Counted from the stretch's first letter, positions 54,338 through 63,817 are shown. The stretch is DNA of 64,000 bases from Candidatus Buchananbacteria bacterium (GCA_013359225.1 JABWCG010000004.1:1550-65549); one strand, 5' to 3'. The notes: a model not told the origin generated them from the sequence alone. Numbers and translations: made by a program.

Positions 54338-55396
54338 TTAGCCAAGCTGTTGTCGGACATTGATTCCGTAAAACGCTTCCAACCGGGAAAACGTTTCCGG
54401 GGCGTTATGATGAACTTCATCCAAAGCTTGCCGGCAGGCAGCCTCGGCTGAATCATCAACCGGTCCAAGCGGCGGCCGCATGGTACCGGTATCAAGACCA
54501 AGGATGCGCATCATGGTTTTGATGGCGCAGGGGTTGGGCCACTTGTCGGTGACGTGGCTTTGGGGATCGTGGTTAGTTCGCGGTCCGGCTGAACTGACGC
54601 CAACTTTACCAAACAGCGGGTTGAGTTGTTGGTTAAGTTGGCGGCCAAGCGCACAGTTGCGACGAAGAATGGCCTTAACCATCCGGTCAATCGGGTTTGG
54701 GATGATGTTACTCATCACCGAAATCACACCGTCGCCGGCAATGCCGTCGGCAATCATCATGTCAGCAGTGATGGCGTCATCGCCGCTGAAAATCTTGAAA
54801 TGCTCAAGGATCCCAATTTCGTTTTGGACCAAGAAGCGCGTCCGGCGCATGTTTTCAAGATCGCCTGTTGCCTCTTTGACCGCACGAACGTTGGGGCACT
54901 CTTGCGCCAAGATCGCCAGGTCAAGCGGCTCAAGCTTGCAGCAGGTGCGTCCCGGGATGATGTAGGGCACGACCAGACATTTGGGGTTGGCGTGGTAGAC
55001 GGCTCGCGCAATCGGTTGGTGGTAGTGTTGGCGCAATTGAGCCGAAGCTGGCTTGTTGTAATAAGGCTCAACCAGCAAAACCCCGTCCGCGCCATCTTCG
55101 GCCGCCTCAATGGAGGCTTTGAGGGCTTCGGCGGTGTTATTGCTGCCAGTGCCGGCCAGAACAAAGACTCGACCCTTGGTCCAAGAGATCACGCGCCTGA
55201 TTAGGCGGTAGTGTTCTTCCCAGGTTAGGGTTGGGCTTTCGCCGGTGGTGCCGCAAGGCAGTACGCCAGCCACGCCTTGGCTGATTTGAAATTCCAGGTT
55301 GCGCTGCAGGCGCTCCCAATCAATTTCGCCGTTTTCGGTGAACGGCGTCACCAGGGCGGTGGTTACGCCCACCAGTCGCGACTGTGGTTTTTCCAT
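54338..55396 (-). CDS. dapA: 4-hydroxy-tetrahydrodipicolinate synthase
   Basis: TALVTPF, CGTTGESPTL, AGTGSNNT, PYYNKP, Y.IPGRT, VKEA, SGDD. Confidence 0.9.
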   Translation of the reverse strand: MEKPQSRLVGVTTALVTPFTENGEIDWERLQRNLEFQISQGVAGVLPCGTTGESPTLTWEEHYRLIRRVISWTKGRVFVLAGTGSNNTAEALKASIEAAEDGADGVLLVEPYYNKPASAQLRQHYHQPIARAVYHANPKCLVVPYIIPGRTCCKLEPLDLAILAQECPNVRAVKEATGDLENMRRTRFLVQNEIGILEHFKIFSGDDAITADMMIADGIAGDGVISVMSNIIPNPIDRMVKAILRRNCALGRQLNQQLNPLFGKVGVSSAGPRTNHDPQSHVTDKWPNPCAIKTMMRILGLDTGTMRPPLGPVDDSAEAACRQALDEVHHNAPETFSRLEAFYGINVRQQLG

Positions 55397-57896: not shown

Positions 57897-57949
57897 GCGT
57901 TTTAGCATAACCAGTGATCCGTCGCGATGGCTGGTTCATTTTTTTAAAA

Positions 57950-59953
57950 ATGAAACTAAAGAAAAAATTAAAAATTATTGCCGTTATTCCGGCTCGCTAT
58001 CAGTCATCCCGATTGCCTGGCAAGCCGTTGGCGTTGATTGATGGCAAGCCAATGATTCAGTGGGTCTATGAACGAACCAAGGCTTTTATAGATTTTGAAG
58101 ATGTGATTGTCGCCACTGATGATCGGCGGATATTTGATACAGTGTCGGCTTTCGGTGGCAAAGTTGAAATGACCAGCCCGGGCCACCTAACTGGTACGGA
58201 CCGGGTGGCTGAAGTGGCCGCCAGACATCCGGATGCTGATGTGGTTGTTAATGTGCAGGGTGATCATCCGTTTGTGGACAACAGCTTGTTTGAAAGACTG
58301 ATTGCGCCTTATTTTATGTATAACCCACCGGCGGTAGTAACGCTTGCCAGCCCTTTGGTGCTTAGTGATTTTACCAACGACAATGTGGTAAAAATTGTTT
58401 GTGATAACCGCGGTAGAGCGATTTCATTAACCAGAACATTAATATCCACTGACCAGTATCGGGCTAGTCGGCATATCGGGCTGTATGCCTTTAGGGCTAA
58501 GTCTTTACGTATTTATACAACATTAAAACAAAAACCGTTGGAGCTTGAACGGCACATTGAGATTTTAAGATTTTTAGAATATGGCTACCCCGTTTTGGCT
58601 ATCAGGGTTGAGGATGCCGGGTTAGCGGTCGACACCCCCCATGATTTAATTGCCGCCAATGATTTTGCCAAACAGGTAAAAACTAAAACGATAAAAAGAA
58701 TTATTTGTTGTCAGAGTACTCATGGTTTGTTAGCAGCGTTAGCCGCAGCTAAATTTATTGAATCTAAAACCACCGATCGGGTGGAATATGTAAATTATTT
58801 GGTGGTGTATGGATTAACCTGGCGACTAGACTTAGACGCACGAGACCAGGAAGTATTTTTGATGATTAAGCAGATGGCACAGGCAGTAATGCCGTGGGCA
58901 GCTGTGGCATATCTTTCAAATCGGACGTTTACTGAAGCATTAACTAAAGATTCAACTGTTAATTTAACGCAGCTGATATATAGTATTGTGGGAACCGAAA
59001 GTGCAAACGAAGTTTATCTGTGTCGTAATCGGGATTTTTTTGGTAGCCGGTTGTTACAGGCATACAATTCGGCAACAAAAGTATGTTACGGCGACGGGCT
59101 TGGTATTTACCACGATCAAGATGTTGTGACACACGAGTATTACCGAGAAAGCATTATGCAAAGTCTGGTTACCTTCCGTTGGTGGCGGCTGCTTAAATTG
59201 CTGATTCGCTGGGTTGACGTGTCATTAATCGATCGTGAACGCTTCCAAAATTTAACTTCCGGTTATCCGATTTTAAACAAAGCAAAGATTCGGCCGTATT
59301 ATCGCTATGCGTTTGATTTTGGGTGCTATCTTTTCCCCGATGGCATGGGGTTTGGTTCCGGGGACACTATTAGAAAATATCAATTGTCGCCAGATATCTT
59401 TGTGAAACTTATTGATATGATAGCCCAGTCATTTGATTATAGTTTTTTGGCGGATCTAAAAAATAAAATGATTGGCCGCAATGTGGTAGTATTCTTGTTG
59501 ACTGATTTTTCGCCCGGCCGAGAGCTTCAGCTGGCAGACGAAATCGCTGCTTATGGGGAATTTCTAGATAAAAAAGTTGATAAAAAGTCTTTGGTGCTGC
59601 TTAAGGTTCACCCAAAGACTGAGCAGTATAAAATTGATAAGCTAAAAACGTTTTTTATGCAAAAACACCCGGATGTTATGATGATTGATTACCGGCAATT
59701 TTTATATATGCCGTTTGAAATAGTATTTCAGGCCTTGTTTGCAGATTTGTTGGCTCAAAAAAAATGTAGAGTGCAGCTAGTTGCTTTCCGTACTTCAACG
59801 TTGGGAGTAGCAAAAATTTTTGGTGTTTCTTCGGCCATCGGCTTTGGCTCACAATTGGTGTTAAAATATTTTAACAAATCAAATATTTTGCATCGTCTGT
59901 GGGAAGAACACCTTACGAAAAAAGCCCTCCAAAAGATTATGGAGTCACGGTAA
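57950..59953 (+). CDS. kdsB: Fusion of a CMP-Kdo synthetase-like N-domain and a putative (poly)sialyltransferase-like C-domain
   Basis: IPARYQSSRLPGKPL, VATDD, TGTDR, NVQGD, HIGLYAF, AVDTP; C-domain YGDG and KVHP motifs. Confidence 0.75.
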   Translation: MKLKKKLKIIAVIPARYQSSRLPGKPLALIDGKPMIQWVYERTKAFIDFEDVIVATDDRRIFDTVSAFGGKVEMTSPGHLTGTDRVAEVAARHPDADVVVNVQGDHPFVDNSLFERLIAPYFMYNPPAVVTLASPLVLSDFTNDNVVKIVCDNRGRAISLTRTLISTDQYRASRHIGLYAFRAKSLRIYTTLKQKPLELERHIEILRFLEYGYPVLAIRVEDAGLAVDTPHDLIAANDFAKQVKTKTIKRIICCQSTHGLLAALAAAKFIESKTTDRVEYVNYLVVYGLTWRLDLDARDQEVFLMIKQMAQAVMPWAAVAYLSNRTFTEALTKDSTVNLTQLIYSIVGTESANEVYLCRNRDFFGSRLLQAYNSATKVCYGDGLGIYHDQDVVTHEYYRESIMQSLVTFRWWRLLKLLIRWVDVSLIDRERFQNLTSGYPILNKAKIRPYYRYAFDFGCYLFPDGMGFGSGDTIRKYQLSPDIFVKLIDMIAQSFDYSFLADLKNKMIGRNVVVFLLTDFSPGRELQLADEIAAYGEFLDKKVDKKSLVLLKVHPKTEQYKIDKLKTFFMQKHPDVMMIDYRQFLYMPFEIVFQALFADLLAQKKCRVQLVAFRTSTLGVAKIFGVSSAIGFGSQLVLKYFNKSNILHRLWEEHLTKKALQKIMESR

Positions 59954-61776: not shown

Positions 61777-61811
61777 AAGCACCTCCGACCAGTAATCGTC
61801 GGAGGTGCTTT
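61777..61811 (+). terminator. rpsP terminator
   Basis: AAGCACCTCCGAC-loop-GTCGGAGGTGCTTT. Confidence 0.75.
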
Positions 61812-61826
61812 GATTTGGCGGTGAAT

Positions 61827-61854
61827 TTGACATTTGTCGGTACTTTGCTACGAT
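61827..61854 (+). promoter_or_regulatory. Sigma70 promoter of the serA leader
   Basis: TTGACA-N16-TACGAT with TGn; predicted start site at about 61861. Confidence 0.65.
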
Positions 61855-61860
61855 AGTGAT

Positions 61861-61950
61861 ATGAAATTCAACCTATTAATGAAATCTTGTCAGTCATCAT
61901 CATTGTCATCAGGCCTCTCAAATTCTGGGGGAAGGTTGGTTTTTACCTAA
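61861..61950 (+). CDS. Serine-rich attenuator leader peptide MKFNLLMKSCQSSSLSSGLSNSGGRLVFT
   Basis: 8 Ser in 29 aa (6 TCA, 2 TCT) directly upstream of a terminator and serA. Confidence 0.8.
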   Translation: MKFNLLMKSCQSSSLSSGLSNSGGRLVFT

Positions 61951-62007
61951 ATATAAAAGCAATTTAGTTAGCAATCAGCCTTTCACCTGTTGAGAGGCTG
62001 ATTTTTT
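61930..62007 (+). promoter_or_regulatory. Attenuator: antiterminator and intrinsic terminator
   Basis: Terminator AATCAGCCTTTCA-CCTGT-TGAGAGGCTGATT-TTTT (61973-62007); GGAAGGTTGGTT (61930-61941) can pair with its 5' arm. Confidence 0.78.
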
Positions 62008-62058
62008 AGCGTCAGAAGCTCTTTTCACTTGTTATCTAACGTTAAGGAGGGTGGTTTG

Positions 62059-63264
62059 ATGAAAGCGTTATTGCTGGATGGTCTTGACGGTGTTGCCGCC
62101 AACATTTTTGAAGCCGCGGGCATTGAAGTGACGCTGGCCAAAACAATTGACCGGCCGGATTTGCTTCGGCAGGTCGGCGCTTACCATTTTTTGGGAGTTC
62201 GCGGTGCGACGAAAATTGACCGTGAATTGCTGGATGCGGCCACCACCTTAGTGGCGGTTGGTCGTGGCGGTGCCGGTATGAACGGCATTGATGTTGACTA
62301 CGCGACGCAGCGGGGTGTAGTGGCGTTTAATACGCCCGGCGCCAACGCTGAGTCGGTGGCTGAATGTGTAATTGGGGTAATACTTGACGCCTTACACCGG
62401 TTGCACAAGGGGTCAACCGGCATGGCGCAGCACACTTGGCTCAAGAAACAGTGCAATGGCAATTCGCTTCGTGGCCGAACCGTCGGCGTTGTCGGTTTCG
62501 GCTATGTCGGCAAGTGGCTGGCCCGGTTGTTGGAACCGTTTGGCGTTCGGGTTTTGTCTTATGACATCAATCCGACAGCTGAACTGCCTTGGGTACCGTT
62601 TGTGCCGCTGCCGGCACTGCTGGCTGAGTCTGATGTCGTCAGTTTGCATTTGCCGCTGACTTCATCAACCCGCGGCCTGGTCAATGCCGACTTTCTAAAT
62701 CAGCTTAAACCCGGCGCGTTACTGGTGAATTTCGCCCGCGGTGAGCTGATTGACGAAGCAGCTGTGGTGGCGGCACTGGCCACTAATCAACTGTTTGGCT
62801 ACGCCACCGACGTATACCCTCAGGAACCGCCAACTGCTGAATACTATGCGGCTAGTCCGTTGTTTAGCCGGCCCGAGCTTTTTACCGATGGTCGACTGAT
62901 TATGACGCCGCATCTCGCAGCCAGTAGCGAAGAAGCACAGCAAACAGTTTCAGAAGCATTGGCCAAGCGCGCCGTCGCCTACCTGAAGGAAGGCAAAATC
63001 CCCTGGGGTGCTAATTTCCCGATTTTCTACCTAGCGAGCGTGGCTGATGCGCGGCTGATTGTTTTTCATCCCGACGAGCAAGGGATGGAAGCAGCGGTCC
63101 TGGGAGAGGTTAAGGGGTTTGCCAACATCGCCGCCAGCATTAATCAGCGCGTCGCACCGGGCGGCGTTGCCTATACCGTGATTGATGTTGACGGTGCACT
63201 TTCTCGTGAACTGATTAATCGGGTCAAGCATCTTCCCGGCGTTATTGCTGTTCATTGTGCTTAA
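62059..63264 (+). CDS. serA: D-3-phosphoglycerate dehydrogenase with C-terminal ACT-like domain
   Basis: SD AAGGAGG; VRGAT, R.GAG..GID, NTPGANAESVAE, GVVGFGYVG, LHLPL, NFARG, DVY..EP, TPHLAASSEEAQ; ACT-like tail. Confidence 0.85.
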   Translation: MKALLLDGLDGVAANIFEAAGIEVTLAKTIDRPDLLRQVGAYHFLGVRGATKIDRELLDAATTLVAVGRGGAGMNGIDVDYATQRGVVAFNTPGANAESVAECVIGVILDALHRLHKGSTGMAQHTWLKKQCNGNSLRGRTVGVVGFGYVGKWLARLLEPFGVRVLSYDINPTAELPWVPFVPLPALLAESDVVSLHLPLTSSTRGLVNADFLNQLKPGALLVNFARGELIDEAAVVAALATNQLFGYATDVYPQEPPTAEYYAASPLFSRPELFTDGRLIMTPHLAASSEEAQQTVSEALAKRAVAYLKEGKIPWGANFPIFYLASVADARLIVFHPDEQGMEAAVLGEVKGFANIAASINQRVAPGGVAYTVIDVDGALSRELINRVKHLPGVIAVHCA

Positions 63265-63322
63265 GGGCATTACGGCTTGTTAATTTGATTAGCAAGCCGT
63301 TTTTATATTGTTACTAATCACG

Positions 63323-63350
63323 TTGACAAATCAAATATTTATGCTATAAT
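63323..63350 (+). promoter_or_regulatory. Consensus sigma70 promoter for khpA
   Basis: TTGACA-N16-TATAAT with TGn. Confidence 0.75.
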
Positions 63351-63499
63351 AGGTATGTTCCTTTCTTAATCCAAGGAACTTTACCAGACTGTTTTTCGAC
63401 AACCATCTTGGTTGTTTGTAAGGTCGGCAGTACTGGTTGCTATCGAAGTAATCGTTTTGTTGGTTAATGCTAATAAAACGAGGAACGAAATCTTGATAT

Positions 63500-63817
63500 A
63501 TGGCTGAAAAGTATTCCGATCAAGAGTTTGTCGAATACGTTGTTAGAGCGATTGTCGCTAATCCTAACGACGTCAAGACAGAGCGCAGCGTTGATGAGAT
63601 GGGTGTGTTAATCACCCTTCATCTTAACCCAGCTGATATGGGTTATGTTATTGGCCGACAGGGCCAAACAGCTCGTGCTATTCGAACCCTGCTTAAAATT
63701 GTAGGTGCTAAGAATAACGCCCGAGTTAACCTAAAGATCCATGAACCAGAAGGTTCACGACGATCTTCAAGATCTGCTGACGCTGACACTTCAGTTGTCG
63801 ACGATCTCAAAATCTAA
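63500..63817 (+). CDS. khpA: KH-domain RNA-binding protein KhpA
   Basis: DMGYVIGRQGQTARAIRTLL; near rpsP. Confidence 0.9.
   Translation: MAEKYSDQEFVEYVVRAIVANPNDVKTERSVDEMGVLITLHLNPADMGYVIGRQGQTARAIRTLLKIVGAKNNARVNLKIHEPEGSRRSSRSADADTSVVDDLKI

Follow-up and report, generated by a model that had tools for sequence, protein, structure and literature searches.

A putative serine-responsive leader-peptide attenuator upstream of serA in a Candidatus Buchananbacteria genome

Background

The classical attenuator leaders include trpL, hisL, leuL, thrL, ilvL and pheL, of which thrL and ilvL carry codons for two amino acids in one run. Serine genes are also preceded by cis-acting RNA control in the Ser T-box riboswitches of Firmicutes and in the alphaproteobacterial serC leader RNA, neither of which has a control ORF. 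Patescibacteria are usually described as reduced and host-dependent organisms.

The class of leader-peptide transcription attenuators is defined in PMC1183508. Mycobacteria possess attenuators formed by polycysteine leaderless sORFs, the 'Cys ribulon' (bioRxiv 10.1101/834739, excerpted text), and in Bacillus subtilis the TCN codons of sinR are described as a serine-starvation sensor (PMC3862929, excerpted text). A serine leader-peptide attenuator, or any attenuator in Patescibacteria, was not found in the full-text literature searched, although serA leaders may be listed in the supplements of PMC2965389 and PMC4833913, and subscription papers on the comparative genomics of attenuation may cover serine. 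In the accessible portion of its main text PMC2965389 mentions neither serine nor serA, and a term search of PMC4833913 gave no matches.

The locus described here lies in a stretch of 64,000 nucleotides (the window), for which a first-pass annotation had proposed a serine-sensing attenuator before serA. Comparative evidence supports that proposal, and we estimate at roughly 80% the probability that the serA leader is a ribosome-mediated, Ser-responsive transcription attenuator. This reading is supported by the conservation of a Ser run with synonymous change and of a near-leaderless start, the conservation of both alternative helices and the match between codon run and downstream pathway.

Results and Discussion

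Organisation of the serA locus

The features of the locus are given in Table 1. The genome is 1.01 Mb in size, 97% complete, and holds all four tRNA-Ser genes. The lineage is taken from homologues in one genome of the same family and one of the same order, whose source labels are Patescibacteria group and Parcubacteria.

Table 1. Coordinates of the leader-serA unit and its borders, counted from the first nucleotide of the window
Feature	Position	Strand	Basis
13-bp hairpin 3' of rpsP	61777..61810	+	fold, -24.4 kcal/mol
Sigma-70-type promoter, extended -10, TTGACA-16-TG-TACGAT	61827..61854	+	10/12 consensus bases
Leader ORF, 29 codons, predicted leaderless, MKFNLLMKSCQSSSLSSGLSNSGGRLVFT	61861..61950	+	homologous ORFs in relatives
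Segment 1 (listed codons 1-5; conserved pairing part codons 2-5), partner of segment 2	61862..61874	+	duplex, -10.9
Control codons 9-17, Ser Cys Gln Ser Ser Ser Leu Ser Ser (5 TCA, 1 TCT, 1 TGT)	61885..61911	+	ribosome here keeps 2:3 intact in folding models
Small local hairpin (1:2 of the first-pass annotation)	61915..61931	+	-8.3 with G-rich stretch
Antiterminator 2:3 (61927-61941 with 61973-61988), stop codon in upper stem (61947-61952 with 61962-61967)	61927..61988	+	
Intrinsic terminator 3:4, six-U tract 62002-62007	61973..62007	+	fold and covariation
Shine-Dalgarno-like AAGGAGG of serA	62044..62050	+	sequence
serA-like type II phosphoglycerate dehydrogenase, 401 aa, C-terminal ACT-like domain	62059..63264	+	NCBIfam, PDB matches
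Terminator-like hairpin 3' of serA	63272..63300	+	sequence scan
khpA promoter, downstream of the preceding hairpin	63323-63350	+	sequence scan

The unit is flanked by rpsP (TIGR00002) and by the gene of the KH protein KhpA, as had been claimed for these normally adjacent genes. In the serA-less relatives inspected, one of them of the same genus, rpsP runs directly into the khpA promoter (3/3), and since promoter, leader and serA are missing jointly in all three, they come and go together. Judging from its predicted fold, the hairpin behind rpsP is likely to be the rpsP terminator, insulating the leader-serA unit.

The promoter claimed at 61827-61854 is indeed present. Its -10 box ends 6 nt upstream of the ATG at 61861, and transcription is predicted from this spacing to start at or adjoining the A of that codon. 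The distance from -10 box to ATG is also 6 nt in five of the other serA leaders (six of nine with the window copy) and 9 nt in one, no box having been found in the remaining two. In the G013 locus (L010) no promoter was found upstream of the leader; an inverted repeat containing runs of C and of G reaches there to immediately before the ATG.

The leader ORF holds, as described earlier, eight Ser codons (6 TCA, 2 TCT) inside codons 9-22, together with a single Cys. When the ORF body was shuffled, only 3 of 32,251 open shuffles reached eight Ser within 14 codons. Over the whole genome 24 short ORFs lie right behind a promoter-like site and three of them have seven equal residues in 12 codons, namely the serA leader (Ser), one with a Leu run and one with a Val run.

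Two of three RNA runs hold small shares of the 64-kb stretch (0.10 and 0.06), as assembled contigs that are uninformative on start, end, level or habitat. One contig of 268 nt falls within serA and another of 176 nt at the start of khpA, the leader being outside both.

The khpA 5' UTR (window 63357-63500) is conserved in sequence in three relatives and gave no match in an Rfam search; it is a candidate structured leader, perhaps autoregulatory.

Ser leaders in related genomes

A full-length, ACT-bearing serA was identified in six of the 31 genomes of the order (G000, which is the own genome, G007, G009, G013, G017 and G025), and the leader is found upstream of all six; the other serA matches in these 31 genomes are weak, partial, or two-domain dehydrogenases of about 300-340 aa. 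Among 68 metagenomic loci there are three close relatives, two with a Ser-rich leader. The third, L049, keeps the promoter and the hairpins, with an ORF shortened to 22 codons and a single Ser. All nine serA loci (6 genomes and 3 metagenomic) are placed directly behind rpsP, and because they share one chromosomal slot and are kin these counts are not independent. L049:2119-2242 is a natural deletion of the Ser run before serA.

Genome G021 has two Ser leaders, one before an uncharacterised ORF followed by serC and the other before an uncharacterised ORF in the rpsP-khpA slot. In the latter (L150/L176/L249, G021:C37:3357) a 133-aa uncharacterised ORF occupies the place where serA would be.

The first-pass annotation had suggested looking upstream of serA and serC homologues for Ser-rich ORFs followed by terminators, and such leaders were found. 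In the ten Ser leaders the 147 codons of the control region comprise 73 Ser, 14 Cys, 7 Trp and 7 Gly, to be compared with genome-wide rates of 6.1% for Ser and 1.0% for Cys in the own genome, those for Trp and Gly being assumed values and not measured ones. Binomial p-values for these counts are disregarded, the leaders being kin. Gly and Cys had both been named as accompanying the Ser codons: Cys is enriched, Gly is not, and Gly sensing is therefore unsupported.

The Ser codons of the ten leaders are TCA (48), AGC (13), AGT (6), TCT (4), TCG (1) and TCC (1), TCA thus making up 48 of 73 versus 23% genome-wide. This codon usage bears on whether the repeat TCATCATCA is instead read in another frame, as His or as Ile/Val, or is chance low-complexity DNA. 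The +1 frame of the window does give HHHCH, and the +2 frame gives VIIIVI with a TTG start at 61887. Nevertheless, in relatives AGC and AGT preserve Ser, whereas neither of the two alternative frames is maintained and stops interrupt them (+1 in two of the ten leaders, +2 in four), so that the Ser frame is the selected one and the His and Ile/Val readings are rejected. Moreover, this frame alone begins at the promoter-adjacent ATG. A reading in another frame, or none at all, has next to no chance of being correct.

The SerA proteins with a leader (n=8) form three groups in a tree of 19 rows from which the truncated L050 was left out. A swap of different serA lineages behind one leader is not claimed, a single clade not being rejected (p-AU 0.11). 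At L118 (G145), serA ends a 692-codon open frame without a leader and is probably fused behind a phosphatase-like domain. The single-protein scan of named genomes returned 3 distant dehydrogenases, without leader. The Ser-trained model with strict filters found nothing in 149 other genomes of the phylum, which does not in itself establish absence.

Alternative RNA helices

The pairing of segments 2 and 3 is as stated in the first-pass annotation, 12 bp with 3 G-U, and is part of a longer hairpin (61927-61988) of -22.5 kcal/mol (z -3.8), 2 of 300 shuffles being as low. The 13-bp 3:4 terminator with its U-tract is also present, two of its 13 pairs consuming the first U's of the tract. Its hairpin (61973-62003) has a predicted energy of -18.4 kcal/mol (z -6.0) that was reached by none of 300 shuffles; a simple terminator scan of the window did not list it. 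Antiterminator and terminator share segment 3 and are, by folding and covariation, mutually exclusive.

Covariation was assessed on a MAFFT alignment of 30 leader copies that was not fitted to structure; a structure-fitted alignment (A3), holding one antisense self-hit, was left unused. For 2:3, 93.9% of 358 cells are paired with 23 double changes, and for 3:4, 85.6% of 355 cells with 25 double changes, a result reached by 0 of 500 shuffles in both cases. In slid controls the pairing drops to 34-63%. In the nine serA leaders alone the covariation score was reached by 10 of 500 shuffles for 2:3, and was no better than shuffles for 3:4 (106/500).

The segment 1 proposed earlier (GGCCTCTCA) did not hold up. 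It is the 5' arm of the small local hairpin, and in the window copy it pairs better with segment 4 (-16.4) than with the G-rich stretch (-8.3). The conserved segment 1 is instead formed by codons 2-5. In the nine serA leaders 85% of the cells of this 1:2 helix are paired, with 6 double changes, and 5 of 500 shuffles reached its covariation score. The best Rfam match of the leader scored 17.4 bits, gathering thresholds being 40 or more.

A modular scaffold with Ser, Leu and Ile runs

A first model, built on the nine serA leaders, matched 16 of 31 genomes of the order and 3 of 150 genomes of the class (own genome included), and a second, R2, built from 30 copies, matched 21 of 31 and 9 of 150. 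Antisense self-hits were dropped and copies were counted by hand, which gave 53 distinct scaffold copies: 10 with Ser, 20 with Leu and 20 with Ile runs, one Ile/Thr, one with an unclear run, and L049. R2 matched none of 94 + 31 control loci, nearly all of them other 2-hydroxyacid dehydrogenases or serA genes and including three full-length serA genes from other families of the class. The own genome has three copies, Ile-cimA (C2:285), Leu-leuA (C2:3509) and Ser-serA.

In 35 of the 53 copies an amino-acid synthesis enzyme is the first or second downstream ORF, and in 34 of these 35 the codon run fits the pathway (Ser-serA 8, Ser-serC 1, Leu-leuA 14, Ile-cimA 11), the mismatch being L049. The leuA products are isopropylmalate synthases of three subfamilies and the cimA products citramalate synthases of two, named by the best NCBIfam model, many below its curated cut-off. 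Leu-cimA or Ile-leuA cross-pairs were not found among the 35 copies, and all 15 copies outside the R2 training alignment match run to pathway (15/15). Since the copies are related by descent and for the most part syntenic, the counts are not independent trials; that the run tracks the pathway across families and enzyme subfamilies is nevertheless not what is expected of a codon-blind switch. Comparison of the copies shows that the serA leader is the Ser representative of a modular family of leaders in this order, in which the middle codon run (Ser, Leu or Ile) is exchanged together with the downstream gene.

Another 17 copies lie directly before ORFs without an amino-acid-synthesis match, the Ser copy L150 included, and one is at a contig edge. 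These 17 copies, like the single-Ser leader of L049, weigh against the attenuation reading. Among those 17 ORFs are one lone LeuA regulatory domain and one C39 peptidase-like protein. At L230:482-1138 an Ile leader precedes a 219-aa protein with the LeuA allosteric domain as its sole match, which is either a regulatory domain standing by itself or what is left of a cimA.

Both termini of the leader peptide (MK-x-NL and GG-R-(L/F)-x-F) are kept from copy to copy and Trp stands ahead of the run in 7 of the 10 Ser leaders, features that would suit a switch driven by the nascent peptide, through exit-tunnel arrest in response to a ligand or to a general stress on translation, and not by a shortage of charged tRNA. 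However, the codons of the conserved ends form the paired segments, so that RNA structure explains their conservation. Furthermore the central part of the peptide gives way to Leu or Ile runs according to which enzyme lies downstream, with run length and order varying freely. We regard peptide-driven arrest as quite improbable and charged-tRNA sensing as the better reading.

Two copies, L184 (G001:C12:4628) and L230 (G006:C34:70952), share an identical short in-frame palindromic insertion (STALSAG), which suggests a small mobile repeat that keeps the frame.

Proposed switch and folding models

In the attenuation reading, transcription would start at the AUG and the ribosome would load without a Shine-Dalgarno site, as the promoter spacing kept in relatives suggests. 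When serine is plentiful, the folding model has the ribosome reaching Gly23 to the stop codon and covering segment 2, so that 3:4 would terminate transcription near 62007. When serine is short, the ribosome in this model would stall in codons 9-17, leaving segment 2 to pair with segment 3 ahead of the synthesis of segment 4, and transcription would run on into serA. Codons 2-5, whose pairing with segment 2 covaries, may act as its protector. Shortage of Cys-tRNA would probably also stall the leader ribosome and lead to read-through, and Cys thus probably co-controls the serA leader.

The leader RNA was folded with ribosome-masked regions, as the first-pass annotation had advised. For three footprint lengths in silico, the predicted probability of 2:3 before the synthesis of segment 4 is about 1.0 as long as the ribosome has not passed codon 18-20, and it is 0 once the ribosome stands at codon 24 or later. 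The geometry claimed, in which a stall frees segment 2 and a ribosome at the stop covers it, is thus reproduced in silico, except that the last Ser codon or codons fall outside the switch. It is predicted that Ser9-Ser17 and Cys10 would control, with Ser20 marginal and Ser22 outside. In a full-length equilibrium model of the window copy, Ser16-17 are borderline for freeing segment 2.

When the first 18 nt are blocked, mask folding places the switch in or just past the run in most of the 30 copies. If segment 1 is left free, the switch is predicted earlier, inside the run, and the control codons beyond that point would have no effect. The block on these first 18 bases could come from a second ribosome sitting at the leaderless start. 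For the window copy, read-through is predicted when the RNA is not translated, the terminator having a probability of 0.0; the corresponding value is 0.56-0.99 in 8 of the 9 remaining Ser leaders. A ribosome at the stop gives the window copy an equilibrium termination probability of only 0.6-0.8, and both values speak against a clean textbook switch.

The leader ribosome might alternatively act on translation, exposing or hiding the Shine-Dalgarno site of serA as in the mycobacterial poly-Cys leaders, with which the predicted leaderless design would be shared; a hairpin at 62010-62060 (-14.2) can in fact cover this site. Yet the predicted access to the site on stalling rises in only 2 of 9 serA leaders, falls by more than 0.2 in one and is about flat in six, hardly changing in the window copy (0.25 versus 0.23), and a covarying terminator with a U-tract is conserved. 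Translational control has in our view a very slim chance of being the mechanism, and transcription attenuation is preferred. A second, translational layer on top of attenuation is likewise unsupported, as no consistent change in access was seen.

SerA and the missing steps of the pathway

The best NCBIfam models of SerA are PRK11790 (255.9 bits, cut-off 404) and TIGR01327 (253.3 bits, cut-off 454), both below their cut-offs and leading other families by 100 bits. Its best full-length PDB matches are the PGDH of Brucella and of E. coli. The catalytic and serine-binding residues of type II PGDH are listed in PMC6300728 (available portion), and SerA R48, K129, R227, H285, H337, D339 and N356 align to Arg60, Lys141, Arg240, His292, His344, Asn346 and Asn364, the Asp at position 346 being as in M. 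tuberculosis. Pfam does not call the ACT domain in the window SerA and calls it in three relatives. A feedback-resistant SerA is not supported, the ACT residues being kept; the retention of the feedback residues and a start directly with the catalytic domain argue against an exported, deregulated enzyme.

The gene behind the leader encodes a SerA-like first enzyme, and the wider claim that the leader controls serine synthesis is conjectural. In the own genome the SerC model, which matched only 5 of 14 control genomes and would miss divergent SerC types, finds nothing, and SerB is far below cut-off, which makes serA an orphan first-step enzyme. Two class V aminotransferases are read as cysteine desulfurases by inspection, and serine hydroxymethyltransferase is present. 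The route might be completed instead by two class I/II aminotransferases and one histidine phosphatase. Among the 31 genomes of the order a single one, G021, gave a serC match (its SerA match being weak and partial), and none of the 6 with full-length serA did. Matches to aconitase/LeuC, the LeuB family or the IlvE family are missing from the own genome, and aconitase/LeuC from all 31 genomes of the order, 22 of which are at least 90% complete. The enzyme of E. coli also reduces 2-oxoglutarate, according to the available portion of PMC6300728.

With no serC or serB found in the own genome, the window copy might be a decayed relic, either a constitutive read-through or a fixed damper. Leaders that persist elsewhere ahead of unrelated ORFs, the loss of the run in L049, and the read-through predicted for the untranslated window copy would fit such decay. 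Against it, promoter, frame, run and both helices are intact in the window copy and SerA keeps its catalytic and ACT residues. Near-identical SerA proteins do exist (96% and 87%), and the run is held over 29-54% SerA identity. We therefore consider decay improbable and a working Ser-responsive leader the better explanation.

A much wider proposal, to which we accord a minor chance, is that these symbionts run homologous, swappable leaderless attenuators genome-wide, each reporting the cell's own hunger for Ser, Leu or Ile (and Val by other leaders). These would switch on lone committed-step enzymes (serA, leuA, cimA) and small uncharacterised proteins whose products could not be finished in the cell, the output being aimed at amino-acid pathways of the host, which it would push or feed on demand.

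Another first-step enzyme, dapA (window 54338-55396, minus strand, above cut-off), has its own promoter-like site and a 5' hairpin, with no leader ORF seen.

Other leaders and neighbouring genes

Three further promoter-adjacent ORFs of the own genome were noted. The first (L163, G000:C2:2247-2400) carries a run of 7 Val within 12 codons as well as a terminator-like hairpin, and neither scaffold model matches it. It lies between the Ile-cimA and Leu-leuA units and precedes ORFs of 98 and 128 aa without a Pfam match; in several relatives, ORFs resembling these are located downstream of cimA. The second (L187, G000:C2:5662-5790), of 15 codons ending in Pro-Thr-Pro-Pro-Cys-Cys and with a terminator, is placed upstream of an uncharacterised ORF and a prephenate dehydrogenase/dehydratase fusion. 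The third (L247, G000:C1:67779, minus strand), of 28 codons rich in Gln, Asn and Asp and also with a terminator, precedes a 300-aa protein without a Pfam or NCBIfam match. In the window itself, a 679-aa ORF (57914-59953, plus strand) encodes a KdsB-like cytidylyltransferase fused to a polysialyltransferase-like region.

Implications and comparison with known systems

If the attenuation reading is true, serine joins the amino acids sensed by leader-peptide attenuation, and such control exists in Patescibacteria. A single scaffold that occurs with Ser, Leu and Ile runs would then amount to a natural experiment on the change of attenuator specificity. The genes under control encode first-step enzymes whose later pathway steps are missing, and their role in a dependent cell becomes a testable question. 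In addition, the codon run marks 17 genes without a known biosynthetic role as candidate Leu-, Ile- or Ser-starvation responders.

In common with the classical attenuators, as far as the consulted part of PMC1183508 defines them, the locus has a short ORF, cognate codons over segments 1-2, exclusive 2:3 and 3:4 pairings, a U-tract terminator and the first enzyme of a pathway downstream. It differs in that the serA leader is predicted to be leaderless and that segment 1 lies upstream of the control codons and not under them. It would sense Ser (with Cys), which was not found described for the class in the literature searched. Moreover one homologous scaffold serves three amino acids, and serA stands without the rest of its pathway.

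Unlike the Ser T-box and the alphaproteobacterial serC leader RNA, the serA leader has a control ORF and no Rfam match near a gathering score. With sinR, as presented in the excerpted text of PMC3862929, it shares the use of TCN codons, TCA dominating the Ser leaders; sinR, however, has neither leader peptide nor RNA switch in that account, and lowers a repressor instead of allowing read-through.

There is a likeness in design with the mycobacterial Cys ribulon, where, in the excerpted text of bioRxiv 10.1101/834739, a leaderless short ORF also comes first (predicted here), stalling occurs on an amino-acid run and several loci exist per genome. The serA leader differs in having a single Cys and no consistent change of Shine-Dalgarno access. 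Furthermore, according to the same excerpt a ribosome-binding site is what becomes free at the mycobacterial locus tested, and the loci there are said to have evolved independently, whereas the serA family has a conserved terminator and homologous copies with exchanged runs.
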